Shown here: one piece after another, positions 3,487 through 56,168 of the stretch
Numbering within the stretch: the stretch's first letter is position 1
How the letters are laid out: the number at the start of each line of letters is the position of its first letter
From: a virus
Strand: one strand, 5' to 3'
DNA length: 64,000 nucleotides
IMG/VR virus record: IMGVR_UViG_3300027770_000029
The notes under the pieces: model-generated
What the model saw: only the letters and a program-made list of their open reading frames with translations
Databases searched by the model: none
Told to the model about the DNA's origin: nothing
Made by a program: the position numbers and the translations under genes

Positions 3487-3812
3487 CCTTCCTCGATAAT
3501 CTCCAGTCCCACAAGGGTGGCCTCATCAAGCTGAAGACCCAGCTCTACTGGAATGATGGTCGAGGTTGGGACAACAATCCCGGCCGGATCTGCCTCCTCC
3601 TGGATGCCGAAGCCGTCACGACCTTCACCGGCACCGCCGCCGCCGCCGGGATCACCGTCAGCACCGTGACCGCCAGCGCCGCGGTGCCCGACTACGCGCG
3701 CATCGCCGCTGCCCTCCTCCTCGTCGACGGGGCTCCTCACTGGATCTGGGTCGGCGCTGACGACCTGGAGCTCCTGCAGCCCGGGTGCAACCCCTCGGGT
3801 GGGGTGGTATAG
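3483..3812 (+). CDS. Hypothetical protein
   Basis: GTGA overlap, phage-like codon usage. Confidence 0.65.
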   Translation: MTFLDNLQSHKGGLIKLKTQLYWNDGRGWDNNPGRICLLLDAEAVTTFTGTAAAAGITVSTVTASAAVPDYARIAAALLLVDGAPHWIWVGADDLELLQPGCNPSGGVV

Positions 3813-3819
3813 TGGACAC

Positions 3820-4008
3820 ATGATGGAGAGTGGCGTGAAACCTGGTGATCTCATCCAACTCAACAAGAACGTCTTCGGCGGCGGCGACATCGGGATGGTG
3901 CTCGGTCCCCACCCACTCGGTGGTGGATGCCTTGAGGTACTGTTCAATGACAGGCGCCGCCAGGTCCACCCTTCGAACGTCCAGAAGCTCAACGGGAGGA
4001 AGCCATGA
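3820..4008 (+). CDS. SH3-like mini-protein (VKPGDLIQL)
   Basis: Promoter 3785; clear paralog of 4005..4202. Confidence 0.75.
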   Translation: MMESGVKPGDLIQLNKNVFGGGDIGMVLGPHPLGGGCLEVLFNDRRRQVHPSNVQKLNGRKP

Positions 4009-4202
4009 ATCCCGGTGATCTCGTCCAGATCAGGAAGGGTGTCGACGGGCAGGGAGAGGTCGGGATCGTGATCGGTCCTGCCACCGGCCCGTCGTGGCTC
4101 ATGCGCGCCGGATGCCTGGACGTCCTGTTCCATGAAGGCATCCGACACGTCCACCCCTCGAACATCCAGGCGCCCGACGGGCGGACCAAACCCCGACGGT
4201 AG
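4005..4202 (+). CDS. SH3-like mini-protein (MNPGDLVQI)
   Basis: Shares G.V+GP...GCL.VLF......VHPSN+Q with previous ORF. Confidence 0.8.
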   Translation: MNPGDLVQIRKGVDGQGEVGIVIGPATGPSWLMRAGCLDVLFHEGIRHVHPSNIQAPDGRTKPRR

Positions 4203-4273
4203 GAACCGCCTGCGGCAAGTGTGCAACCCCTGGCAGGCTATGGTATAGTGTATCCACAACGGAGGAATCAATC

Positions 4274-4744
4274 ATGAAGTTCAGCGTCGACCAGCACGTC
4301 ATCATGAAGGGCCAGGGCCCGCTTTCGGGTCGCCGGCGTGTGATCATCGGGATCCTCGACCCCGGATACTACACCGTCGCCCGTCCTGACAATGTGGCGG
4401 AGAGCTGTCACATTGCCCACGAGAGCAACCTCATCCCCGAGGAGCCCGTGCAACCGGCGGGGCAGCATGGTAAGATCGAAACACAACCGGAGCGGATCAT
4501 GAAGAACGAGACCACCCACGACCTGCTCGACCGCGCGATGTGCAACGAGGCCCTCGCCTTCCTGCGTCAGATCTCCGCGCTCGAGAACGACGACCTCTGG
4601 GCTTTCGCCCGCCTCATCGCGGAGACGAAGCTGCCCGCCTGGACCACCCGCACGACCCTCGGCGATGTCTTCCACACGGCGAAGAGCATGGTCGTCCTTG
4701 AGGACGCCCAGAGCATGATCTACAACTTCAACGAAGGGGAGTGA
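4274..4744 (+). CDS. Hypothetical protein with internal promoter and second start at 4499
   Basis: Promoters at 4221 and 4448, both with SD. Confidence 0.7.
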   Translation: MKFSVDQHVIMKGQGPLSGRRRVIIGILDPGYYTVARPDNVAESCHIAHESNLIPEEPVQPAGQHGKIETQPERIMKNETTHDLLDRAMCNEALAFLRQISALENDDLWAFARLIAETKLPAWTTRTTLGDVFHTAKSMVVLEDAQSMIYNFNEGE

Positions 4745-4747
4745 ACC

Positions 4748-5092
4748 ATGAGCACCCGCTCAACGATCGGATACGAGACCGCTGACGGCGGATATGTCGG
4801 GGTCTACTGCCACTTCGACGGCTACCCCAGCAACATCGGGCCGTCCCTCCATGAGATGCTCCACGCCGATGTGGTCATCATGGTGGAGAAGGCTCTCCGT
4901 CGGGGCGGCATGCGCTGCCTCAACGGTCCCGGTGAATTCGAGGTTTACAACGAGCGCTCGGAGCGTGAGCACTGGCTCCACGACGCCTGGCCCGAGCGCA
5001 ATGAGGACTACGCCTACCGGAAGTGCCTCGATGGGCGGGTCGAGTACATCGACAGCAGTGACACCGTCTGGGAGTGGAAGCCGAAGGGCTGA
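4748..5092 (+). CDS. Conserved phage protein (MSTRS...YCHxDGYP family)
   Basis: Recognisable YCHFDGYP motif. Confidence 0.75.
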   Translation: MSTRSTIGYETADGGYVGVYCHFDGYPSNIGPSLHEMLHADVVIMVEKALRRGGMRCLNGPGEFEVYNERSEREHWLHDAWPERNEDYAYRKCLDGRVEYIDSSDTVWEWKPKG

Positions 5093-45337: not shown

Positions 45338-45609
45338 GCCCGATTAGCTCAGTTGGTTAGAGCAACGGACTGTCAAATGGCAGCTTTGGTGGGTAACCAC
45401 CATCGAAAAGATCGTAAATTCGGTGAACTCCCTGTCGAAAGACGAGACAACGCCGAGCCAAGCCCGAAAGGGAAGGTGTAGAGACTGTAATCGATCCATC
45501 CCACCGGGATGATGGCACAGTCCAGACCACGAACGGTGAGAACCGGCGATGAAAATCGAAGTGGCACGTAATCCGTGGGTCCCCTGTTCAAGTCAGGGAT
45601 CGGGCGCCA
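45338..45609 (+). tRNA. trnN: tRNA-Asn(GTT) split by group I intron (exons 45338-45373, 45569-45609)
   Basis: Joined exons give ACGGA-CTGT|TAA-TCCGT, G73, CCA. Confidence 0.88.
45374..45568 (+). mobile_element. Group I intron (~195 nt, IC-like) in tRNA-Asn
   Basis: P AAATTCGGTGAA, Q AACGCCGAGC, R GTGTAGAGACT, S GGCACAGTCC; terminal G; U.G P1. Confidence 0.88.
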
Positions 45610-45616
45610 TATCAAT

Positions 45617-45707
45617 GAGACCGAGCCTGGCGGGCACACCCGACGGGGTGCAGGTTGGTTCAATTCCAACGGGGTCAAACGTGGTTCGAATCCACGCGGT
45701 CTCATCA
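45617..45707 (+). ncRNA. tRNA-like RNA with two T-loop hairpins
   Basis: GAGACCG/CGGTCTC acceptor; GTTGG-TTCAATT-CCAAC and CGTGG-TTCGAAT-CCACG. Confidence 0.5.
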
Positions 45708-45709
45708 CT

Positions 45710-45823
45710 TTCCCACCCCAGACCGCCGGATAACCGGCACCACTCGCAACCAGTGGTATCTGCGTTAGCACGGTCAGAAAGTTTGAGGCTTCAGTCTCAT
45801 TCGCGCAGATTAAGGGGTGGGAA
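45710..45823 (+). ncRNA. Unassigned pseudoknotted RNA
   Basis: 10-bp closing helix, three hairpins, crossing GACC/GGTC and ATCTGCG/CGCAGAT. Confidence 0.5.
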
Positions 45824-45847
45824 TTAACAAACAACAGCGGAGACAAA

Positions 45848-46153
45848 ATGATTTACGAAATCGTGATCGTTGCCGACACAAACGATGCTGACTACGTCAC
45901 AAAGATAAGTGACATTACTCCTGGCGAACTCGAACGATTTACACCTCTGATTGCAGAGATTGCAAAAGTCAAGCACTACAATTGGGACACTTCGGCGTAT
46001 GGAGATGATGAAGACAAGCCAGAGATCATGTATTCTCAGTTTGCCGAGCTGGTGGAGGAATTTGGGGAGTTTGTCCCGCACGGCGAACACGGTGTTCACA
46101 CCATCAAGTCTATTGTTTATTACGAAAAGCCCACAAAGATTGTTCTTCTTTAA
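45848..46153 (+). CDS. Acidic hypothetical protein
   Basis: SD GGAG. Confidence 0.75.
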   Translation: MIYEIVIVADTNDADYVTKISDITPGELERFTPLIAEIAKVKHYNWDTSAYGDDEDKPEIMYSQFAELVEEFGEFVPHGEHGVHTIKSIVYYEKPTKIVLL

Positions 46154-46258
46154 ATAAAAACCATGCAAACCGCCCGCGGGCATGTTATAATAAGAACATA
46201 AGCTGGATCGGATCGGACGCCACTAAGAATCTGCTCATTAGATGACCACTACCATTAT

Positions 46259-46334
46259 AGGCGGGTAGCTCAGCGGTCAGAGCAGGTGGCTTATATCCAC
46301 CCGGTCGTGGGTTCAATCCCCACCCCGCCTACCA
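46259..46334 (+). tRNA. trnI: tRNA-Ile(TAT)
   Basis: Cloverleaf, GGTGG-CTTATAT-CCACC, A73, CCA. Confidence 0.85.
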
Positions 46335-46339
46335 ATGCC

Positions 46340-46445
46340 AATGATCGTAAGGCCTGATTCCATTAGATGGGTTCTCCTGAATTAACAGGGCAATACTATG
46401 ATCCAGCTAATGGAATCCGATCTGACACTCTGGAAAGACAGAGAA
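46340..46445 (+). ncRNA. Unassigned structured RNA
   Basis: 11-bp GATTCCATTAG/CTAATGGAATC; CTCTG-GAAAGA-CAGAG hairpin. Confidence 0.45.
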
Positions 46446-46451
46446 CTTCTT

Positions 46452-46528
46452 CTCACCATAGCTCAGCTGGATAGAGCAGCAGCCTTCTAAGCTGCGGGTC
46501 ATTGGTTCGAATCCAATTGGTGAGGCCA
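46452..46528 (+). tRNA. trnR: tRNA-Arg(TCT)
   Basis: GCAGC-CTTCTAA-GCTGC, CCA. Confidence 0.92.
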
Positions 46529-46625
46529 TTTCGTTGAAGGTTTACGATGAAACTTCTATCAGTAATTTACCAGCTTGTGAGAGCGATTCACCGCGCTCTG
46601 AGGTGCTTCGGAAAGTCAAAGTAGA

Positions 46626-46646
46626 GGGGGCGTAGCTCAGCTGGGA
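46626..46646 (+). pseudogene. 5' remnant of a canonical tRNA-Ala
   Basis: GGGGGCGTAGCTCAGCTGGGA then abrupt loss of tRNA pattern. Confidence 0.7.
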
Positions 46647-46697
46647 AAACTTCAAATTTGATTGCAATTTATTTGCTCTCCCAGAATAATTAGGTTT

Positions 46698-47273
46698 ATG
46701 TGGACATGCAAACATTGCAAGAATAATTTTGAGTTTGATTCTTTGTCTGATAAAGCTAATCACTCTAGATGGTGCGAAAAAAATCCAAAAAAAGAAAACA
46801 CTGAGAGCTTAAAACTCGCGCAGTCACTTTCAGTAGAAAAAAGACTTGGGCCGATTCAAGAATTTGAAGTCTTTTGCGAGACTTGCTCCAAACTCTTTAT
46901 GATTAAAGAGAGAGCAAAGAAATTTCCGTCTAAAGAAAAATACTTTTGCTCAAGAAGCTGCGCAAATTCTTTAGGCGGAAAAGCAAAATCAGAAAAATAC
47001 AGGATCAATGAACCGAAGCATTACGTAGCTATTGCGTGGAAATACCATGATAAAGTTTGCTGCGTTTGCGACGAAAATAAGATTGTAGCTGTTCATCATT
47101 GTGATGAGAATCACGACAATAATGATCCAAAAAATCTAGTTCCTCTTTGTCCAACTCATCATCAGTACATGCATAGCAGATACAAAATCGAAATACAAGA
47201 TAAAGTTCAGAAATACATCAATGATAAATGGGCTGTAAGTGTTGTCGGGGGCACACGGGCTTTGCAAGCCTGA
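46698..47273 (+). CDS. HNH homing-endonuclease-like protein
   Basis: CCVC...VHH.D....NNDPKNLVPLCPTHH; AT-rich; stop inside tRNA-Ala. Confidence 0.85.
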   Translation: MWTCKHCKNNFEFDSLSDKANHSRWCEKNPKKENTESLKLAQSLSVEKRLGPIQEFEVFCETCSKLFMIKERAKKFPSKEKYFCSRSCANSLGGKAKSEKYRINEPKHYVAIAWKYHDKVCCVCDENKIVAVHHCDENHDNNDPKNLVPLCPTHHQYMHSRYKIEIQDKVQKYINDKWAVSVVGGTRALQA

Positions 47274-47304
47274 AGGACCGGTTCGATTCCGGTACGGTCC
47301 ACCA
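47230..47304 (+). tRNA. trnA: tRNA-Ala(TGC), atypical D-arm
   Basis: G3.U70, loop TTTGCAA, A73, CCA. Confidence 0.85.
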
Positions 47305-47342
47305 TTCAACAATCGCACGAGAGTGCACAATCAAGGAGAAAA

Positions 47343-47651
47343 ATGCGTAACTTCACGATCTCTGCTTTTGCAGTCGCAGCTCTGGCCCTTGCTGGCTGCC
47401 ATCATGACGATGACAAGGACGACGACACTGTTACCTGCCCTCAGGATACTGCTGGTCAGGACACTGCCGTGACCGATCCGGTTGACACCGCGGACACCAG
47501 CGGTGGCGATACTGCCGATACTTCGACTCCGCAGGATACGGCGTCCCAGGATACCGGGGCTGACACTGGTGCTGGTAGCGACACCGGCGCAACTGATACT
47601 GGCGCTTCCAGCGACACTGGTTCCGGCGGCACCGACACCTCGGCTCCCTAA
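47343..47651 (+). CDS. Asp/Thr-rich lipoprotein
   Basis: Lipobox LAGC, DTG/DTA repeats. Confidence 0.75.
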   Translation: MRNFTISAFAVAALALAGCHHDDDKDDDTVTCPQDTAGQDTAVTDPVDTADTSGGDTADTSTPQDTASQDTGADTGAGSDTGATDTGASSDTGSGGTDTSAP

Positions 47652-47659
47652 CAGATTTT

Positions 47660-47751
47660 GGGAGAGCTGCTAGGGCGGTGGTCTAGCGACGAGCTGTAAA
47701 CCCGTTCCCTCAGGGCAAACACTGTCAGTTCGAATCTGACCTCTCCCACCA
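47660..47751 (+). tRNA. trnY: tRNA-Tyr(GTA)
   Basis: Loop CTGTAAA, long variable arm, CCA. Confidence 0.88.
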
Positions 47752-47755
47752 TCGA

Positions 47756-47832
47756 AGGACTATAGCTCAGTTGGTTAGAGCTAGCGTTTCATACACACTC
47801 GGTCACTTGTTCGAATCAAGTTAGTGCCACCA
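47756..47832 (+). tRNA. tRNA with CAT anticodon (Met or Ile2), stem mismatches
   Basis: Loop TTCATAC, canonical D and T arms, mismatched acceptor. Confidence 0.65.
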
Positions 47833-47833
47833 T

Positions 47834-47908
<75 letters not shown>

Positions 47909-47912
47909 CATT

Positions 47913-47989
<77 letters not shown>

Positions 47990-47995
47990 CATGAC

Positions 47996-48079
47996 GCGCG
48001 GATGGTGGAATGGTATACACGCAGGTCTTAGAAGCCTGTGCCTGACGGCTTGAGGGTTCAAGTCCCTCTTCGCGCACCA
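47996..48079 (+). tRNA. trnL: tRNA-Leu(TAG)
   Basis: Loop CTTAGAA, long variable arm, CCA. Confidence 0.92.
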
Positions 48080-48146
48080 CCTATAAAATTAGAAAGTTGA
48101 TTAACCTGAATCAATCGTATGAGTATATTTAGAACCGAGGGTTCGA

Positions 48147-48929
48147 ATGTTTTCATGCGACTGTGAGTTTTTGACAGATTCTCTTAGAACTTTAAGGAGT
48201 CATTACGCAGCAAATCACGGCAGCGGAATCTCTTTCTTTGAAAAGTTCGATGACGTAATCACTTCCAATTGGGAAGATTTCCCACAAAGAGCGATTCGCT
48301 CGTTCTTACTTTGGAAGTCAAATTACAAATGCACGTCATGTGGATACGAAAAAACACGAGAGTGCGGTGCTTCGATACTTGAAGTTGATCACATCGATGG
48401 AAATCATGATAATAACTCTTTAAGTAACCTTCGCATTCTTTGCCCAAACTGTCACGCTCTAACTCCAAAATATCGAAATTGGTCGAACAAAGGAAACGAA
48501 AAGCATGCTTCATCACTAAGACCGGGTAATGCTGGTTATAATGAAAGGCACAAGACCCAAGAAGCGAAGAGATTTGAACGACAACTCAAAATTGAAACGA
48601 AGAAAGCTCAGACGACTGAGATAAAACGTGATAAGAAGAAAGTTTTTCGAGAGTTTGAAAAAACTAAGATTAACTTTCAGGAAAGGTTTATTCAAAAAGT
48701 GAATGAGCTTCATCAATCTAAAGAGATTGACTTTTCAAAGTATGGATGGGTTCAGTTATTAGCTGAACGTTGTAATGAACATCCACAAGTCGTCGGTCGT
48801 AGAGTTCGCTCACTAATGCCTGATTTTTATCTTGAACATTGCTTCAGCAGAAGATATAATCATTACATCAAGAATATGGAGAGCATCCGGCCAGATGAGG
48901 AAACAGCCTTGAAAACTGTCGCGGGTTAA
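48147..48929 (+). CDS. HNH homing-endonuclease-like protein
   Basis: CTSC...LEVDHIDGNHDNNSLSNLRILCPNCH; stop inside tRNA-Ser. Confidence 0.9.
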   Translation: MFSCDCEFLTDSLRTLRSHYAANHGSGISFFEKFDDVITSNWEDFPQRAIRSFLLWKSNYKCTSCGYEKTRECGASILEVDHIDGNHDNNSLSNLRILCPNCHALTPKYRNWSNKGNEKHASSLRPGNAGYNERHKTQEAKRFERQLKIETKKAQTTEIKRDKKKVFREFEKTKINFQERFIQKVNELHQSKEIDFSKYGWVQLLAERCNEHPQVVGRRVRSLMPDFYLEHCFSRRYNHYIKNMESIRPDEETALKTVAG

Positions 48930-48966
48930 GAGCCCGTTGTGGGTGCGAGTCCCACGCTCTCCGCCA
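48878..48966 (+). tRNA. trnS: tRNA-Ser(TGA), atypical D and T loops
   Basis: GGAGAGC/GCTCTCC, loop CTTGAAA, variable arm, T-loop TGCGAGT, G73, CCA. Confidence 0.8.
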
Positions 48967-48970
48967 TCTT

Positions 48971-49044
48971 GCCCCCTTAATTTAATGGTAAAATACCTGT
49001 TTTGTAATCAGGCTTTGTTGGTTCGATTCCGACAGGGGGCACCA
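48971..49044 (+). tRNA. trnT: tRNA-Thr(TGT)
   Basis: Loop TTTGTAA, CCA. Confidence 0.88.
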
Positions 49045-49049
49045 CACGG

Positions 49050-49081
49050 CCGGCATCTAATAATAGATGCCGGCTTTTTTG
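49050..49081 (+). terminator. Intrinsic terminator
   Basis: GCCGGCATCTA-ATAA-TAGATGCCGGC then T-run. Confidence 0.8.
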
Positions 49082-49115
49082 ATGATAGCAATCAACAACA
49101 AAGGAACAATCAACA

Positions 49116-49462
49116 TGAAGCTCGCTAATGTCCTACTTCTTCTTCCTCTCCTCACCCTTGCAGCATGCGGCGGAGATGATGACAAGACCAGCACCGTTGA
49201 TACCGCAGCTTGCGGTGAGGGTGATACCAGCTCGGTCGATACTGCTGTGACTGTCACCTGCACCGACGCCACGGGCACCTACGACGTCGGCGCCACGTGG
49301 ACCTGCGAGGATGGCTGCAACTCCTGCTCTTGCCAGGAGGATGGAACGGTCGCTCAGACCGAGATGGCGTGCCCTGATACCGGTGACACGGGCGGTGAGG
49401 TTCCCCCTGACACTGGCTCCTCTGATACGGGTTCCTCTACCGACACCTCCACCGAGGGTTGA
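49116..49462 (+). CDS. Lipoprotein with pacifastin/VWC-like Cys motif
   Basis: LAAC lipobox; GATWTCEDGCNSCSCQEDG. Confidence 0.7.
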
Positions 49463-49466
49463 TAAA

Positions 49467-50456
49467 ATGATCGCGATTCTTTCCCTGCTCATCGCATGCT
49501 CCGATGCCAGCAACGTTGCGGAGCCCGTAAATCCGCAGATCACGGATGCTGTCACGGTTGATCGTACTAAGCTTGGAGCGTTCCAGCCGCTCCCGGAAAA
49601 CTTCTTCATTGCGGGAGCGGAGCCTTCTCCTGATCTGATCTTTCTCGGTCGCCGTCTCTTCTTTGAGACCCAGCTCTCGGCCGACGCCAACATGTCATGC
49701 TCCACCTGTCATAATGTTGCGAAGGACGGCGCTGATGAGCATAAGTTCTCCCCGGGTCACAAGATGACGCCGGCAGGTCGTAACTCTCCGACGGTCTTCA
49801 ACGCAGCAGGACAGGCTTCCCAGTTTTGGGACGGTCGAGCAAAGACGGTCGAGGAGCAGGCACTCGGTCCTATCCTCGCTGCGGGTGAGATGGCGATGCC
49901 GGATGCCGAGACCGTTGCCCGCGTCCTCAAGGAGGATCCCACCTACGTTGTTGAGTTCGCGAAGGCATTCCCGGGTGAGAAGGATCCCCTCACTTTTGAG
50001 AACGTCGGTGTCGCCATCGGTGCCTACGAGCGAACGCTGGTCACACCCTCCAGGTGGGACGCTTTCCTCCAGGGTGACGATGCCGCTCTCACCAACGACG
50101 AGAAGCGGGGCCTCAATACCTTCATGGAGGTCGGTTGCACGGCATGTCATAACGGCACTCTTCTCGGTGGTGCGTCTTTCATGAAGCTCGGTGCTGTGGA
50201 GCCTTGGCCCAACCAGGCAGACCAGGGGCGATTCGGAGTGACGGGACAGGAAACCGATCGGATGGTCTTCAAGGTGTCTTCCCTTCGCAATTCCACTGAG
50301 ACGGCACCCTACTTCCACGATGCATCTTCCGAGAGCCTGGGCGCAGCCGTCTACATGATGGGAAAGCACCAGCTTGGTAAGTCTCTCACCCCTGAGCAGG
50401 TGACTGATATTGTGAGCTTTCTCGGGTCCACAAAGGGAAATCCAGCTTCCTTCTGA
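49467..50456 (+). CDS. Di-heme cytochrome c peroxidase (CcpA/MauG family), lipoprotein-type N-terminus
   Basis: CSTCH and CTACH heme motifs, RNSPTVFNA, QFWDGRA, APYFHD. Confidence 0.93.
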   Translation: MIAILSLLIACSDASNVAEPVNPQITDAVTVDRTKLGAFQPLPENFFIAGAEPSPDLIFLGRRLFFETQLSADANMSCSTCHNVAKDGADEHKFSPGHKMTPAGRNSPTVFNAAGQASQFWDGRAKTVEEQALGPILAAGEMAMPDAETVARVLKEDPTYVVEFAKAFPGEKDPLTFENVGVAIGAYERTLVTPSRWDAFLQGDDAALTNDEKRGLNTFMEVGCTACHNGTLLGGASFMKLGAVEPWPNQADQGRFGVTGQETDRMVFKVSSLRNSTETAPYFHDASSESLGAAVYMMGKHQLGKSLTPEQVTDIVSFLGSTKGNPASF

Positions 50457-50461
50457 ACTTT

Positions 50462-50548
50462 GGAGACGTGGGTGAGTGGCTCAAACCAGTCCCTTGCTAA
50501 GGGACCACCGGCGAAAGTTGGTCGCAGGTTCGAATCCTGCCGTCTCCG
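50462..50548 (+). tRNA. trnS: tRNA-Ser(GCT), no encoded CCA
   Basis: GTCCC-TTGCTAA-GGGAC, long variable arm. Confidence 0.9.
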
Positions 50549-50708
50549 TACTAACGGCTCCTGATCAGAGATCGTATACACGGGACCATGCTCGCATGGC
50601 GAAATCCCGTCCAAATCGTAGGTTGGCACAGTTCGCGGCTCTGGAGGTATTCCAAAAGCCGCTTTTCTTTTATCTGATACAGACTTAACGGCATCAGGAC
50701 AAGAACAA

Positions 50709-51008
50709 ATGGCAATTCACATATCAGAAATCAAGCTCCGCCAGATCATCAAAGAAGAATTGTTTCGTGAGTCGAAGGATAACGACCCTCCGGCTGAAAT
50801 TTCTTACGAAGTTGAGGTCCCGCACCGGCCGCATGATCATGATGAGGAGATCGCTGATGCTATCCAGAAAGCTCAGACGAAAGCTATCGACGATCACAGC
50901 GCGAGATATGATATAAGCGATGATCACGGTGATGGATATAAGAAACTTGGGAAGACAAAGGGCGGAAAAATTCGATACAAGGTCTACTTGTCCCATATCA
51001 AGAGGTAG
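50709..51008 (+). CDS. Tagged protein (ISEIKLRQIIKEE)
   Basis: Tag motif. Confidence 0.75.
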   Translation: MAIHISEIKLRQIIKEELFRESKDNDPPAEISYEVEVPHRPHDHDEEIADAIQKAQTKAIDDHSARYDISDDHGDGYKKLGKTKGGKIRYKVYLSHIKR

Positions 51009-51020
51009 CAGGAGAAAATT

Positions 51021-51593
51021 ATGAGCTCTACACCGACTCTCCTTCGCCAGCTTATTCGTGAGAGCATCTCTCGACCCAAAATTTACGTTCTTGTCGGACC
51101 TCCCGGAGTCGGAAAGTCGCACTGGGTTCGACAGAACGTGCGTGACGCTTATATCATCAGCAGGGATGACATTGTTGATGCAGTTCGAGCTCCTCACGGA
51201 ATCAAATACAATGACACGTTTGGCCCAGCGGGTCGTCACATCTCAAAGGAAGTTGATAGAGAATTTCGTAATCGTGTCGCGGGAGCAGCCCAGTCGGGTC
51301 AGGATATAGTCGTTGACATGACAAATATGGGGGTCGGTTCCAGAAAGAGCGCTCTGAAAGCCATTGCGGGACGTGAGAGAGAATATGAGAAGATTGCTGT
51401 CTTCTTTGACTATCGCGGGATGGAGAGCAAAGTGCAACGATCGGTCGATCTCCGTGCTGCAGAGCTCCAGGACAAAAACTTGAGCCCTGCAATCATGCAA
51501 AGCATGTTTAATCGTCTGGAACTACCGACACGAGAAGAGGGTTTCGATGATATTATTGTCGTTGACCCGTCAGAGACATTAAATCGTCCCTAG
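51021..51593 (+). CDS. P-loop kinase (AAA_33 / polynucleotide-kinase-like)
   Basis: GPPGVGKS, ISRDD, VVDMTN, PT.EEGF; N-terminal LRQLIRES tag. Confidence 0.85.
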   Translation: MSSTPTLLRQLIRESISRPKIYVLVGPPGVGKSHWVRQNVRDAYIISRDDIVDAVRAPHGIKYNDTFGPAGRHISKEVDREFRNRVAGAAQSGQDIVVDMTNMGVGSRKSALKAIAGREREYEKIAVFFDYRGMESKVQRSVDLRAAELQDKNLSPAIMQSMFNRLELPTREEGFDDIIVVDPSETLNRP

Positions 51594-51622
51594 CTCCTCC
51601 TATAGTTAGAAGAGGAGCGACA

Positions 51623-52804
51623 ATGAACAGAATCCCACGTTTACTACTTTTCGCCCTTCTGCTGCCACTCGAGAACGGCTGCATGGATTCTGAGCTTCAT
51701 CCGGTTAAAGATCCGCCTCCGGATGGGACGCCTGCGATCCAGGTCGACCCGGAGTCAATTGACTTTGGGATCGTTCCAGCGGGTGAGAGCTCAGCTAGCA
51801 TCATAACGATGTCATCGGTGGGTTCTGTCGCTCTCAATGTGACAGCGATGCAGATAGGAGAGGGACGAGAGACGTTCACGCTCCTTGAGCCATTGACGGG
51901 AACATATGAGCCTGATGATTCTGTTGAGCTAACGATCACTTACAATTCAGATGGGAGTGAAACAAGCGGTGTCCTTCAAATCCTTTCTAACGATCCTAGC
52001 CATCCTAATACTAGTGTGCCTCTGCTAGCTCACGCAGAGATCAATGTCGATACGGGAGAGACAGGCGATACTGCACCGCCACTTTCGCAACCCGTTGCAG
52101 TCTGCTCCGTTGATCCGATTGAGGTGGAGGCGATTCACGGATCAGCCGATTGGGTCGGAAATTCTTCATACGATTCAGATGGTTCAATCGTTGATTATCG
52201 CTGGACGTTGATCTCGTCACCAGCGGGTGCAACAGCAACAACGCCAGCTGGAACTGCGAATCGTCGTAACTTTGTTCCTGATGTCGCTGGAGAATACATC
52301 GGAGAGCTTGTAGTGGTCGACAACGATGGCCTAGAGTCGGAGCCGTGTCAGGCGACCTTGAACGCCACCGCTGGTAGCGGTCTCTGGATCGAGATGTTCT
52401 GGACCTACTCGGGAGATGACATGGACCTTCACCTCCTGGATGACGGTGGGGTCCTGACGGGAACATCCGACTGCTATTACGCGAACTGCACCTGGGGCGG
52501 ACTTAACTGGGGCGCCGCAGGCACTGCTGACAACCCCGTTCTCGATCTCGATGACATCATGGGAACTGGTCCCGAGAACATCAACATCGACTCACCGGCA
52601 CGAGGGACCTACACGGTCTACGTGCACGACTACCCAGGTTCCGTCTACATGGGTCAGAACGACGTTACGGTGAGTGTGTATCTTGGAGGCTCTCTCATCT
52701 GGACTGACACTAGAAACGTCAACTCGGAAGGTTGCTATGAGCCGTTTGTTGAAGTCAACGTTCCTGGAGGGGCTACGACCGATCTTTACGGCAGCTGTAG
52801 ATGA
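51623..52804 (+). CDS. Secreted/lipoprotein with ASPM-SPD2-Hydin, PKD-like and YfaP-like domains
   Basis: Signal peptide plus C; IDFG, SNDP, SYDSDGSIVDYRW, DMDLHL, GPENI. Confidence 0.75.
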   Translation: MNRIPRLLLFALLLPLENGCMDSELHPVKDPPPDGTPAIQVDPESIDFGIVPAGESSASIITMSSVGSVALNVTAMQIGEGRETFTLLEPLTGTYEPDDSVELTITYNSDGSETSGVLQILSNDPSHPNTSVPLLAHAEINVDTGETGDTAPPLSQPVAVCSVDPIEVEAIHGSADWVGNSSYDSDGSIVDYRWTLISSPAGATATTPAGTANRRNFVPDVAGEYIGELVVVDNDGLESEPCQATLNATAGSGLWIEMFWTYSGDDMDLHLLDDGGVLTGTSDCYYANCTWGGLNWGAAGTADNPVLDLDDIMGTGPENINIDSPARGTYTVYVHDYPGSVYMGQNDVTVSVYLGGSLIWTDTRNVNSEGCYEPFVEVNVPGGATTDLYGSCR

Positions 52805-52946
52805 TTTTTAAGATTGTCGACTACTGGTTCAGGCTCTTCATGTGGATGCTGCTTGATCCGATGGGTCGAACATTTTTCTGGATCTCAGATGTCACGTTGC
52901 TAATTGCGTGCGCATCATTTCTGTGGTACACAAAGGATGAAAAGAA

Positions 52947-53174
52947 ATGAGATGGAGAACGTCAGGTGAGTCACCAGCCGGGAGGCATAAACTCTCGGAG
53001 CCGCGCGCGAAGACAAAGGCACCACATGACCCGACTTATGGTCACGAGCCTGACATGCTTGACGCGCCGGGTCTCATGGTGGAACCTGACGTTCGTCGTA
53101 AGATCGCAAAATACTTCAAGCAGATGAGGCTTCGCGAGATGATAGAGGAAATTATCGATGAGATGATTAGGTGA
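52947..53174 (+). CDS. Small protein with C-terminal LREMIEEII helix
   Basis: SD, ORF track. Confidence 0.6.
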   Translation: MRWRTSGESPAGRHKLSEPRAKTKAPHDPTYGHEPDMLDAPGLMVEPDVRRKIAKYFKQMRLREMIEEIIDEMIR

Positions 53175-54201
53175 AGTGACCTAGATCAGCCAGAACAAGC
53201 TCACCTGTCTCCGGCCTTAGCATGATGTTGTTTCCGTGAACGTCAGACGGATTGATGTTCATTGACTTTAGATCCTCAAGTGCGCTCACGAGTTCCCGGA
53301 CTCCCTTGATTCTTCCAAGCGGTCCAGGGACTTCTTTCGTCGGCTCTTTCGGAACCGCTCGACGTCCGAGCAAGCTCGTTATTGAGCTCATTATCATCTG
53401 ATTCAACGACTGTATTGAACCAGGTCTGGTGATTCCAAGCGCGCGGCACCAGAGCTCAACTTTCTTTCCAATCGCCGATCTTAGTCCGTCAATGGCCGAG
53501 AGCATTATTCCACTACCTTGATCTGTTACCTCAGGGTCATAAGATGCGGAGACCAGCATTTTCTTAAGTCTGCTGAATTCTTCGGCTGGGTCTGATTTTC
53601 TTGGAGCACCGGCAATCGCTGCGTCGACCGCGCGCTTCGATCTGCTCATTGCCTCATCAACGACTGCTGAGAAAGCTTCACGATCGCTAACAAGAGAGCC
53701 TAAAGAGTGGATGGATCGAGTCGCTGGCTGGGTAATGAGATCGAACATATTTCCCGGTAGCTCCTCGAGTCTCTCCATGACAATGACACCCAGATTCTCT
53801 GGACTTCCAAAGTCATCAGTTGGAAGCGGAACTCCCAGGTCCTCTAGCGTTCTGATCTTATAGATCACTGGCATATGGCGAGCAACCCGGTCTGGTAGTC
53901 TGACAATCGCTTGCTGGGCGCGTTTGTAGCTCTCGATCTCATTCAGGGGCTGAATCTTAAGAATTACGTTTTCATTTCTCTCGTCGACGGCTGAGAATGT
54001 GTAAGCTCCGTACAGCCTCTTGGATCTTGACAGGTATCGAACGTCGGCCAATCCCATCTCTTCTGCGACATCTTTGGCCACACTTTCCATCTTCGCTCGT
54101 CTCTGCACAAACGGATCTGCTGGGACATGGTGGGCTGGTAGTGGCGCGGTGGCGTCCGATTCCAGCATCAAGCGTATCAGCTTTCTTAGGTTTCCGTTCA
54201 T
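53167..54201 (-). CDS. Protein-kinase-like (APH/RIO-like) protein
   Basis: ILKI, IVMERL, DVHGNN, LADLG; late motif 54207; N-terminal LRKLIR tag. Confidence 0.75.
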   Translation of the reverse strand: MNGNLRKLIRLMLESDATAPLPAHHVPADPFVQRRAKMESVAKDVAEEMGLADVRYLSRSKRLYGAYTFSAVDERNENVILKIQPLNEIESYKRAQQAIVRLPDRVARHMPVIYKIRTLEDLGVPLPTDDFGSPENLGVIVMERLEELPGNMFDLITQPATRSIHSLGSLVSDREAFSAVVDEAMSRSKRAVDAAIAGAPRKSDPAEEFSRLKKMLVSASYDPEVTDQGSGIMLSAIDGLRSAIGKKVELWCRALGITRPGSIQSLNQMIMSSITSLLGRRAVPKEPTKEVPGPLGRIKGVRELVSALEDLKSMNINPSDVHGNNIMLRPETGELVLADLGHFT

Positions 54202-54255
54202 CTTGTTAAATATTCGTTGCAAATTGAACTCGTCACCAGTATAGTCTTTCTGTTG

Positions 54256-54331
54256 GCCCCGGTAGACCAGCGGCAGAGTCAGGAGACTTAAAATCTCTGT
54301 AGGGCGGGTTCGAATCCCGCCCGGGGCACCA
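54256..54331 (+). tRNA. trnL: tRNA-Leu(TAA) with short variable loop
   Basis: GGAGA-CTTAAAA-TCTCT, A73, CCA. Confidence 0.82.
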
Positions 54332-54387
54332 CTCTGTTTATAGTCTCAGTAAAAGAGTTAAAATTAACGTCTCAAAGGAGAAGCACA

Positions 54388-54495
54388 ATGAAGTTCGTCA
54401 TTCTTGCAGTTCTCGGTTCTCTCTTCCTCGGTGGTTGCACCGGTGGTAAGGACGATACCGGCACTGATACGAGCTCTGCCACTACGGCCGAGTGA
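54388..54495 (+). CDS. 35-aa lipoprotein (MKFVILAVLGSLFLGGC...DTG)
   Basis: SD GGAG, lipobox, manual translation. Confidence 0.6.
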   Translation: MKFVILAVLGSLFLGGCTGGKDDTGTDTSSATTAE

Positions 54496-54571
54496 TCCTA
54501 AAGCTCAAAATAGAGCGACGGCTGGCACTGGTTGCCAGCCGTTTTCATATTTACGAGCGGAGAAAATTAGC

Positions 54572-55168
54572 ATGCTAACTGCAATTGGCGACGTGATGAG
54601 GAAGTGCTACGATCGTGGATGGATCACAAATCGTGACGGAAATATCTCACTGTGTCGTAATAACTCGAAGACTCTGTACATCACGCCTTCAGGCTGGAGG
54701 AAGACTATCATCCACCCAGAGCATATCGTGAAGTGCAAGCTTGTCGATGACGGCGTAATCGCTCCTTCCGGACAAACCGCAAGCGGTGAGCTTCATATGC
54801 ACTGGCTCATTCAGAAGGATTTCACAAAAACCCGCGCCGTCGTTCATGTTCACGCGACCCATGTGGTTGCAGCAATGTTTGCAGGTTGGGACCTTCAGGA
54901 GCTCGCCAGACAGTTTCCAGAAGTGAACCGGTACACCCGAGTAGGGCCTAACGTACCTGCCCTGCCGGCAACATCACGTGAACTGGGCGATATGACTGGG
55001 GTGCATCTGGGGTGCCTACCGGACGGGTCGCTCCAGTATGATATCGTAGGGCAAGCGAATCACGGGGTCTGCGCAGTCGCTGGTGATCCGTGGTCAGCTT
55101 TTGAGCACGTTGAGCGTCTCGATCACATCTGCGAGATTGTGCTAAAAAGTGGCGTGAAGCCGAAATAA
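54572..55168 (+). CDS. Class II aldolase/adducin family protein
   Basis: DGNIS, ITPSG, SGE..MH, VVHVH, NHG. Confidence 0.9.
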   Translation: MLTAIGDVMRKCYDRGWITNRDGNISLCRNNSKTLYITPSGWRKTIIHPEHIVKCKLVDDGVIAPSGQTASGELHMHWLIQKDFTKTRAVVHVHATHVVAAMFAGWDLQELARQFPEVNRYTRVGPNVPALPATSRELGDMTGVHLGCLPDGSLQYDIVGQANHGVCAVAGDPWSAFEHVERLDHICEIVLKSGVKPK

Positions 55169-55218
55169 AGATCACAAATTCGAACTCAGGTTAATATCTA
55201 AAACAAGAGGATTAACTT

Positions 55219-55899
55219 ATGTTCGAATGCGAAAATTGCTCAATCTCTCATGATGCCTCGTATGGAAGCGGAAGATTCTGCAGCGCAAAATGTTCGAGGT
55301 CATTTTCGACTAGATCGAAGAGAAAAGAGATAAATGAAAAAGTCTCAAAGTCTTTGTCTGGTAGAGAATGTCCCAAAGATTTTGAGTGTGATGGGTGCGG
55401 TAAAAAATTCGGTTCGAAGATGGCTCTGATAGGGCACAAGTCAAATTGCGATAAAAATGATGCAAAGCTTGAACGCGAAAGATATAATCAAAACAGATTG
55501 GAAGTCAAGCTAAATGCTTCATTTGAAGAACTTTCAATCATCTTGAAAAGAGAAAAAATTTTCCGTGAACAATCTGGTAAATGTAACCATTGCGGATTAG
55601 AAAACTGGCTCGGACAAAAAATAACTCTAGAGCTTGAACATCGCGATGGAAACACAAATAATAATGACAGATCGAACCTAGAGCTTCTTTGCCCAAATTG
55701 CCATTCTCTAACTCACACGTGGAGAGGCAGAAATAAAAGCAAAAGTAACTCTAGAAAAAGAGTGAGTGATGAAGATCTTTCAGAAGCACTAAAAAGCAGC
55801 TTGTCAATTCGTCAGGCGCTGATTAAAGTTGGTTTAGCTCCTAAAGGTGCAAACTACTTCAGAGCGAAAAAGTTAAAAGAAAATTTAACGGGCCTTTAG
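55219..55899 (+). CDS. HNH homing-endonuclease-like protein with SYGSGRFC Zn-finger N-terminus
   Basis: CNHC...LELEHRDGN..NNDRSNLELLCPNCH; stop inside tRNA-Lys. Confidence 0.9.
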   Translation: MFECENCSISHDASYGSGRFCSAKCSRSFSTRSKRKEINEKVSKSLSGRECPKDFECDGCGKKFGSKMALIGHKSNCDKNDAKLERERYNQNRLEVKLNASFEELSIILKREKIFREQSGKCNHCGLENWLGQKITLELEHRDGNTNNNDRSNLELLCPNCHSLTHTWRGRNKSKSNSRKRVSDEDLSEALKSSLSIRQALIKVGLAPKGANYFRAKKLKENLTGL

Positions 55900-56168
55900 C
55901 TCAACTGGCAGAGCAAGGGACTTTCAATGGAAGCTTCAGGGAGAAATCTCTGTCGAACACAGCCCAAATTCGGGGAACTCTTAACAGGTAATGCTGATGA
56001 CAATCCCGAGCGAAGCCCGAAAGGGAACGTGTAGAGACTAGAGGGGCTGCACCCTAACGAGAAAGACGAGGGTGATGGTATAGTCCAGACCACGAACTGC
56101 AAAGGCGACGAAAGTCGAAGTGGTATGTAATCCCAAGGTTGTGGGTTCGATTCCCACAGGGCCCACCA
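55890..56168 (+). tRNA. trnK: tRNA-Lys(TTT) split by group I intron (exons 55890-55924, 56128-56168)
   Basis: Joined exons GGGA-CTTT|TAA-TCCC, A73, CCA. Confidence 0.88.
55925..56127 (+). mobile_element. Group I intron (~203 nt) in tRNA-Lys
   Basis: P AAATTCGGGGAA, Q AATCCCGAGC, R GTGTAGAGACT, S GGTATAGTCC; terminal G. Confidence 0.9.

Follow-up and report, generated by a model that had tools for sequence, protein, structure and literature searches.

Predicted group I introns at anticodon position 35/36 of the tRNA-Asn and tRNA-Lys genes in a freshwater phage tRNA array

Introduction

Whether a phage may hold two of its transfer RNAs (tRNAs) only as genes interrupted by self-splicing introns, and whether two such introns would be copies of one another, are questions raised by the 64,000-nt stretch of virus record IMGVR_UViG_3300027770_000029 (hereafter the window, i.e., the whole stretch of DNA that was analysed). 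At about 45.2-56.4 kb its + strand carries a tRNA array, in which ARAGORN finds 14 tRNAs, with no Asn or Lys among them, when the unspliced window is searched. Genes for both lie within the array, each split in the anticodon loop by an insert without an open reading frame (ORF), and both are missed by ARAGORN in the raw window. An earlier sequence-only reading had taken the inserts for homologous group I introns of a single lineage, which had moved between the two tRNA genes by changing one guide base.

Bacterial tRNA genes split by group I introns entered the textbooks in the early 1990s, and the IC3-like family includes the Anabaena tRNA-Leu, Agrobacterium tRNA-Arg and Azoarcus tRNA-Ile introns. 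Phages are a different matter. According to a 2014 review, every phage intron known at that time lay in a protein-coding gene, although phages have many tRNAs (PMC3984707), and phage tRNA introns were stated to be previously unreported by Devoto et al. (2019; PMC6784885), who described 'enigmatic' tRNA introns in Lak megaphages. Our full-text literature search, the coverage of which is incomplete so that a report may exist, turned up no account of phage tRNA genes that carry group I introns, nor any description of the 35/36 site or of Asn and Lys hosts. The 'group I introns' of cyanobacterial tRNA-Arg, Gly and Lys published in 2017 (PMC5733544) were set aside, being, at 22-49 nt, too short for ribozymes.

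We consider it very probable that the two inserts are working pre-tRNA group I introns, an activity that we infer from their sequence, and that they sit in a freshwater phage array as separate members of a mobile pool.

Splice junctions

Joined in silico, positions 45338-45373 (the 5' exon of tRNA-Asn(GUU), tRNA positions 1-35, ending CUGU) and 45569-45609 (the 3' exon, tRNA positions 36-76, beginning UAAUCC and with CCA encoded), both on the + strand, are read by ARAGORN as a canonical tRNA-Asn(gtt) of 77 nt. Positions 55890-55924 (the 5' exon of tRNA-Lys(UUU), ending CUUU) and 56128-56168 (the 3' exon, beginning UAAUCC and with CCA encoded), also on the + strand, give a tRNA-Lys(ttt) of 76 nt. 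In both tRNAs the insert stands between positions 35 and 36 (35/36), the 5' exon ends with U35, the insert ends with G and the 3' exon starts with UAAUCC; among all choices of a U-ending exon and a G-ending insert, only these junctions give a 7-nt anticodon loop. In-silico splicing and ARAGORN thus reproduced exactly the coordinates, the lengths (195 and 203 nt) and the tRNA-Asn and tRNA-Lys identities of the sequence-only reading. The intron mode of ARAGORN was unusable for group I introns. It assumes the archaeal/eukaryal intron position, and it misplaced the splice sites and labelled the genes Asp and SeC.

Natural alleles lacking the inserts were sought in viral contigs with exact 28-nt probes spanning the predicted ligated junctions. 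The probes matched 50 contigs for Asn and four for Lys, three being relatives of the window phage. The 152-kb contig L229 has an uninterrupted tRNA-Lys that is identical to the ligated exons at 73 of 73 positions and stands in the same gene order as in the window, with the class II aldolase gene upstream (79%) and the Gln and Glu tRNAs and the next ORF downstream (76%). The tRNA-Lys of L011 (176 kb) is also uninterrupted (72/73 identical), and L178 has a syntenic, uninterrupted tRNA-Asn (76/77 identical) with matching flanks. BLAST matches to these intron-less relatives end with the 5' exon and resume exactly at 45569 and 56128, and because the bases flanking the boundaries differ (T/C and G/T) the bounds cannot be slid from 45374-45568 and 55925-56127. 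The predicted junctions, 45373/45569 and 55924/56128, are therefore independently confirmed by the natural intron-less alleles in L229, L011 and L178. Two apparent joints over the Lys intron (55918/55928 to 56136/56137) in contigs from four partial sources were not used as evidence, because their sides are shorter than 30 nt with replaced letters and tRNA pieces of other organisms map there.

The contig L011 also carries the Asn intron, identical to that of the window at 179 of 186 positions (96%), its locus stopping before the intron 3' end. Two of the seven differences, 45487 (G to A) and 45518 (C to T), fall on the partners of the last P7 pair, and this G-C to A-U change is compensatory since the two positions are partners of one pair; the remaining five are all at positions unpaired in the model. 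We read the Asn intron as being under selection for its fold.

Intron fold and family

We assign both inserts to the group I introns of the bacterial pre-tRNA type (IC3-like), because Rfam, a covariance model and covariation over 42 homologues agree; the IC3 label comes from homology to bacterial tRNA introns and not from a direct alignment to the Azoarcus reference. The Lys intron is found by the Rfam model RF00028 (Intron_gpI) with 56.6 bits (E 1e-11, gathering score 50) and the Asn intron, when a short stretch is searched, with 32.9 bits (E 5.9e-7), well beyond what chance would give, so that the group I identity proposed earlier stands, although with the Asn intron below the gathering score. 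A few short mechanical ORFs of the ORF list overlap the introns and none lies wholly inside one.

The alignment, A2, comprises 42 homologues bearing the shared core together with the two window introns, with P7 added as a pseudoknot, and from it the covariance model R1 was built. R1 scores the Lys intron at 191.7 bits and the Asn intron, whose sequence is in the training set, at 176.9 bits. The A2 consensus has P2, P3, P4, P5, P6/P6a, P8, P9 and two P9 hairpins, and its pairing holds 44 pairs in 11 helices, including the P3/P7 pseudoknot, with 97.1% of cells paired. Compensatory (both-sided) change is seen in 26 of the 44 pairs. Covariation scores 0.461 on this alignment; shuffles give 0.134, none of the 500 reaching the observed value, and sliding the partners by 1-3 columns gives no more than 0.082. 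Among the homologues the closing pair of P7 may be G-C, A-U or U-A.

Both window introns form every A2 helix, and neither has lost any of the core positions that are invariant in the family. In intron 1 (45374-45568, + strand) the guide GCAG lies at 45380-45383 and the terminal G at 45568. Read from A2, its helices are P2 (45387-45392/45397-45402, with L2 GUAA), P3 (45410-45414/45492-45496), P4 (45420-45425/45451-45456), P5 (45429-30/45446-47, with a GAAA hairpin at 45433-45444), P6 (45457-59/45475-77), P6a (45463-65/45470-72), P7 (45483-87/45518-22), P8 (45497-45501/45507-11), P9 (45527-30/45561-64), P9a (45534-37/45542-45) and P9b (45547-50/45555-58, with a GAAA loop). In intron 2 (55925-56127, + strand), with the guide GAAG at 55930-55933 and the terminal G at 56127, they are P2 (55937-42/55947-52, with L2 GAAA), P3 (55960-65/56044-49), P4 (55970-75/56004-09), P5 (55979-80/55999-56000), P6 (56010-12/56028-30), P6a (56016-18/56023-25), P7 (56036-40/56081-85), P8 (56050-54/56070-74), P9 (56090-93/56120-23), P9a (56097-98/56103-04) and P9b (56106-09/56114-17, with a GAAA loop). 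L2 is thus a GNRA loop in both, and the P9b loop is the invariant GAAA of the bacterial pre-tRNA intron family. The minimum free energy fold of the Lys intron recovers P2, P3, P4, P6, P8 and P9.

A core of 26 bases (GTGTAGAGACT ... GTCCAGACCACGAAC) is common to both inserts. The shared core and P9 segment that had been noticed earlier proved real, the combined core pattern matching twice in the window with none expected in shuffles. An unfiltered R1 scan and core-motif scans allowing mismatches revealed no third intron copy in the window; near-matches at about 39.9 kb were rejected as chance, their motifs being in the wrong order.

Guide sequences and insertion sites

The guide of each intron pairs with the last four bases of its own 5' exon. 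P1 of the Asn intron joins exon CUGU (45370-45373) with guide GCAG through a U45373.G45380 wobble followed by G-C, U-A and C-G, while that of the Lys intron joins exon CUUU (55921-55924) with guide GAAG through U55924.G55930, U-A, U-A and C-G. These pairings, with U.G at the splice site, are those of the sequence-only reading. The two guides differ at the one base that faces position 34 of the tRNA (G34 vs U34).

To place these guides among those of relatives, a homologue sample was drawn by the exact core motif of both window introns, the bacterial matches used being those listed. The exact 26-base core was found in 54 IMG/VR viral contigs and in at least 120 bacterial contigs, mostly of Alphaproteobacteria, with Acidobacteriota, Gemmatimonadota, Actinomycetota, Cyanobacteriota and one Saccharibacteria bin also among the matches listed. 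All U-ending and G-ending choices of splice site were enumerated, and those kept gave an ARAGORN tRNA, a canonical loop and the conserved 3' end of the family. A split tRNA could be assigned in 155 of the 176 loci among the matches listed (the two window introns counted), five loci being ambiguous and 21 without a tRNA under this rule set.

The assigned loci cover a range of tRNAs and sites. At 33/34 there is Met(CAU) (at least 18 loci, bacterial and viral). The 34/35 site is occupied in Leu(UAA) (at least 60 loci, bacterial and viral), Lys(UUU) (at least 11, bacterial and viral) and Ser(UGA) (at least one, bacterial), as well as, among the matches listed, in Arg(UCU) (four loci), Ile(UAU) (three) and Thr(UGU) (two), all of them viral. 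The 35/36 site is occupied in Asn(GUU) (at least three loci: viral L010, the Gemmatimonadaceae contig L128 and the window), in Lys(CUU) (at least three, from Acidobacteriota) and in Lys(UUU) (at least 11, made up of seven viral loci, the window, Gluconobacter, Gluconacetobacter and a Rhodobacterales bin). Arg(CCU) is split at 36/37 (at least 34 loci, bacterial and viral). Another four loci, each the only one of its assignment (two Leu introns at unusual sites, one Leu(AAG) and one read with a stop anticodon), were treated as unreliable. Insertion at 35/36 is therefore recurrent, with the Asn case in L010, L128 and L241 and the Lys case in L018, L024, L030, L031, L147, L164, L172 and L234.

Two statements of background made by the sequence-only reading have to be amended in the light of this survey. 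Classic bacterial introns had been said to follow position 33 or 34, with Arg included, but Arg(CCU) introns were found at 36/37. No 35/36 intron had been named as reported for Lys, but Lys(UUU) and Lys(CUU) introns occur at 34/35 and 35/36 in bacteria and in many viral contigs, the bacteria among the matches listed being Gluconobacter, Gluconacetobacter, Pyrinomonadaceae, Tsukamurella and Microbacterium. The window introns do lie outside the sites of the classical descriptions (Leu-UAA at 34/35, Arg-CCU and Ile-CAU at 36/37, and fMet). The 35/36 position is a difference of site, not of ribozyme.

Guides follow exons class by class. Exon ACU is found with guide GGUC, CUU with GAGU, CUGU with GCAG or GCGG, CUCU with GGAG, CUUU with GAAG, GGAG or GGAA, and UCCU with GGGN, and P1 has at least 3 bp in 132 of the 142 non-redundant introns among the matches listed. 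On these sequences, guide retargeting is a general property of the bacterial pre-tRNA intron family, extending over at least 11 tRNA/site classes and at least 170 loci of bacteria and viruses. Among the same listed matches, the bacterial introns are mostly in tRNA-Leu(UAA), Arg(CCU) and Met(CAU), and all of them align in A2; phage introns are biased towards Lys, Asn, Arg(UCU), Thr and Ile(UAU).

The core-bearing loci from which no tRNA was recovered include L003, L013, L016, L025, L027, L039, L041, L042, L044, L045, L049, L052, L054, L059, L061, L064, L068, L087, L094 (the Saccharibacteria bin) and L166; such loci may be truncated, or may hold unusual tRNAs or other host genes. The P7-P3'-P8 segment of the Lys intron has no exact match in the viral contigs, and a search with the P5 motif returned 18 contigs, mostly with other, more distant group I introns.

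A candidate mobility partner

A free-standing HNH endonuclease gene (55219-55899, + strand; phrog_14736, E 1.5e-28) precedes the Lys intron, its stop codon lying within the first 10 nt of tRNA-Lys. At the syntenic loci of L229 and L011 it is missing together with the intron. In L035 a homologue of the HNH gene stands 54 nt upstream of a tRNA-Leu that bears an intron, and in L241 and L245 homologues are situated inside the span of related tRNA introns. No such HNH gene was identified adjoining tRNA-Asn. The endonuclease is a candidate mobility partner with which the Lys intron probably travels in the manner of collaborative homing, although support for this is weak and it is the least certain step of our interpretation.

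Relationship of the two introns

The proposal that one window intron is a recent copy of the other, which entered the nearby tRNA gene by ectopic homing or by reverse splicing and was fixed there once one base of its guide had changed (C to A or A to C), has points in its favour. The guides differ exactly at the base that matches G34 vs U34, and both introns are inserted at 35/36 ahead of a 3' exon that starts UAAUCC. Their sequences weigh against it. Identity between the two is only about 70%, and relatives as close or closer are found elsewhere: the Met(CAU) intron of L055 is 71-72% identical to the Asn intron, and the nearest relative found for the Lys intron (80%) is a Lys 35/36 intron in the jumbo-phage contigs L234, L244 and L248.

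A maximum likelihood tree was computed with the guide region removed, leaving about 200 usable columns. The best tree, obtained by a careful search that replaced a poor first quick tree (against which the constrained tree had been 54 log-likelihood units better), joins the Asn intron with two viral Met(CAU) 33/34 introns (support 100/95) and places the Lys intron in a long-branch pairing, so that the window introns are not sisters. A tree constrained to make them sisters is only 5 log-likelihood units worse, with p = 0.43 in the approximately unbiased (AU) test, so that sisterhood is not rejected. Changes of host or site on the tree number at least 24, against a possible minimum of 12 and a shuffled mean of 75.6; as mapped in this way, site switching across the family is frequent but not random.

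Independently of the tree, L011 has the Asn intron yet an uninterrupted tRNA-Lys. The two introns have had separate histories of gain or loss because L011 has only one of them, and an HNH gene accompanies the Lys intron alone, which also argues against a copy made within the genome. Taken with the closest relative found for the Lys intron, the pattern in L011 favours separate acquisition or loss from a shared pool, and we regard direct transposition between the window genes as unlikely. What survives of the original proposal is its more general part, i.e., that these are homologous, ORF-less 35/36 introns with guides one base apart, from a family that has moved among tRNAs with matching guides (at least 24 changes); the direct one-base step between the two genes is not supported by their identity of about 70% or by the best tree, although sisterhood is compatible with the AU test.

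Discussion

Our preferred reading, of two working introns drawn separately from a mobile pool, follows the mechanism that is standard for the family. The pre-tRNA cloverleaf would fold around the intron, and P1 would arise from the pairing of the guide, GCAG or GAAG, with the four bases at the exon end, the cut being marked by the U35.G wobble. P7 would bind an external guanosine, which would then attack after U35, whereupon the terminal G would take the P7 site and the exons would be joined, giving the loops CUGUUAA (Asn) and CUUUUAA (Lys). As the Asn and Lys tRNAs occur in the array only as split genes, the phage would depend on splicing for both. The pool itself may move between the tRNA genes of phages and bacteria, an intron being able to settle after any U of the anticodon loop (33 to 36) once a guide of 3-4 nt matches. 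The Asn and Lys introns would have been gained or lost independently and not be recent copies of one another, and the Lys intron probably travels with the adjoining HNH gene, both the role of the HNH protein and the order of events being inferred.

Several observations weigh against this reading. The 32.9 bits of the Asn intron fall short of the RF00028 gathering score of 50, and scans of the full window or of 11 kb with this model leave the intron unreported, as it is filtered out. The thermodynamic stability of the Lys intron is unremarkable (z = -1.05), and no convincing P10 could be found between the P1 loops (CAAAUG and CAAUG) and the 3' exon UAAUCC. The class counts and the tree placement are biased by sampling on an exact motif and, for the bacteria, on the matches listed. 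An HNH homologue lies within 1.5 kb in only four of 39 viral intron loci, and the adjacency of HNH gene and intron could be coincidence because HNH genes also abut intron-free tRNAs: those at 46662-47273 and 48147-48929 end at or inside the 5' end of downstream intron-free tRNA genes.

The inserts might instead be removed by proteins (an endonuclease and a ligase), or might serve a regulatory or anti-defence function by delaying the maturation of tRNA-Lys and tRNA-Asn. The different tRNA preferences of phage and bacterial introns among the matches listed are in keeping with such a role; the complete ribozyme core, the U.G and terminal-G rules and the covariation of the guide, however, are those that self-splicing calls for and suffice to explain removal, and a selfish element would account for the HNH association as well as for the presence/absence alleles. 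We hold this explanation to be improbable. That splicing has been lost and the split genes are tRNA pseudogenes kept by chance, for which the Rfam score of the Asn intron and a U-U mismatch at its first P3 position might be cited, is hardly credible given that the invariant core is intact and all helices pair in both introns, that Asn orthologues differ by a compensatory P7 change and otherwise at unpaired positions only, that the exons are canonical and 99-100% identical to the uninterrupted tRNAs of relatives, and that these are the only Asn and Lys tRNAs of an otherwise broad array.

The window introns resemble the classical bacterial tRNA-Arg(CCU) and Leu(UAA) introns. They share with them the identical 26-nt P7/J-P9 core, the same P2 to P9, GNRA loops on L2 and the P9b hairpin, a guide directly 5' of P2 and an ORF-less length of about 200-250 nt in the anticodon loop after a U, and an Agrobacterium sp. 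sequence (L126) is among those aligned in A2. The classical introns are bacterial-chromosomal and are found in Arg(CCU) at 36/37 and Leu(UAA) at 34/35, whereas those of the window are slightly shorter, lie in a phage tRNA array, occupy Asn(GUU) and Lys(UUU) at 35/36 and have other guide tetramers. The Azoarcus intron appears to share J3/4-P4 (AAAUUCGG), P4' (CCGAG) and P7 (GUGUAGAGACU). Its P9 is simpler and is not known to have the CCAC...GUGG three-way P9 junction of the window introns, and its site is after U36 of CAU. Like those of the window, it is a small IC3-type intron in a tRNA anticodon loop without large peripheral domains. This intron, of pre-tRNA-Ile(CAU), is a structural model system (PMC13168695).

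The tRNA inserts of Lak megaphages are likewise in the anticodon region of phage tRNA genes, but they are short and not group I, whereas the window introns have a full ribozyme core. A parallel for the Lys intron is collaborative homing, which Bonocora and Shub and Zeng et al. reportedly described in 2009 in T7-like phages and cyanophage psbA. In the window an HNH gene likewise stands beside an ORF-less intron in a phage gene, with relatives lacking both; here, by contrast, a tRNA gene and not one for a protein is the target, and HNH genes also stand beside intron-free tRNAs. The ribozyme is classical, as are its placement in the anticodon loop and its mode of action, and no new mechanism is revealed; the known family is extended to new tRNAs, to a new site and to phages.

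The same ribozyme family is present in dozens of viral contigs, sometimes three to a tRNA cluster, and, unannotated, in cultured phages. Standard tRNA finders miss the split genes, and phage tRNA repertoires and analyses of codon supply therefore undercount tRNAs, namely Lys, Asn, Arg, Thr, Ile and Leu. The loci also form a natural series in which one ribozyme is retargeted to at least 11 exon contexts, with intron-plus and intron-minus alleles, and which is suited to studying how introns change site and how endonucleases and introns team up. We would go further only tentatively. It is possible, though we lean against it, that phage tRNA arrays are a major overlooked habitat of IC3 tRNA introns that are retargeted by changes of 1-3 guide bases to any U of the anticodon loop (33-36) in many kinds of tRNA and driven, in phages, by HNH endonucleases at tRNA genes. 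If so, with the HNH gene free-standing at tRNA-Lys and intron-lodged in L241 and L245, the window pair would capture a step between a free-standing endonuclease and a mobile intron with a tRNA target.

Additional observations

The R1 covariance model finds related introns in further phages. Gordonia phage Daredevil (L176, NC_048021.1, 568-816) has an unannotated tRNA-Lys(UUU) 34/35 intron (153 bits), and the Escherichia coli jumbo phages Turkey5 (L177, PQ471516.1, 647-872) and TH47 (MT446416.1) have an unannotated intron after CAU, at 36/37 (73 bits), 69 nt upstream of an annotated HNH homing endonuclease. The host tRNA is unannotated in the Daredevil and Turkey5 records. The guide of the Turkey5 and TH47 intron is GUG, as in Azoarcus. 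The jumbo-phage contig L234 (IMGVR_UViG_3300022935_000005, 281 kb) holds three intron-bearing tRNAs within 1.5 kb at 3555-5023, Arg-UCU (34/35), Leu-UAA (34/35) and Lys-UUU (35/36), and the same trio is found in L244. At 1329-2618 of L241 an Asn 35/36 intron accompanies a Leu-UAA intron of about 670 nt, which holds a homologue of the window HNH gene on the opposite strand. Rhizobium phage RHph_N3_13 (L001, MN988507.1) has a partial core match (P4-P6; R1 51 bits) at 1501-1579, between two 'partial ribonucleoside reductase' coding sequences that flank a 'Srd-like' ORF; it is probably an unannotated group I intron splitting a reductase gene.

The window is phage-like in its HNH endonucleases and a phage-type helicase (phrog_2488, E 1.7e-114), most of its ORFs being of unknown function, and its DNA was found only in freshwater metagenome DNA runs. 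G+C drops from 0.60-0.66 to 0.42-0.55 at about 38-42 kb, with the tRNA array and the cargo genes falling on the lower-GC side. Metabolic-looking cargo stands among the tRNAs, with genes for a di-haem cytochrome c peroxidase (49311-50456; PF03150, E 9.5e-50), an AAA_33 kinase-like protein (51021-51593) and a class II aldolase (54404-55168; PF00596, E 9.3e-26). Directly downstream of tRNA-Asn, at 45623-45703, there is a weak mascRNA-like match (23 bits) with no ARAGORN call. A tRNA-Sec-like match (35.3 bits, gathering score 47), again without an ARAGORN call, lies at 48877-48963, where it overlaps the end of an HNH gene directly upstream of tRNA-Thr.

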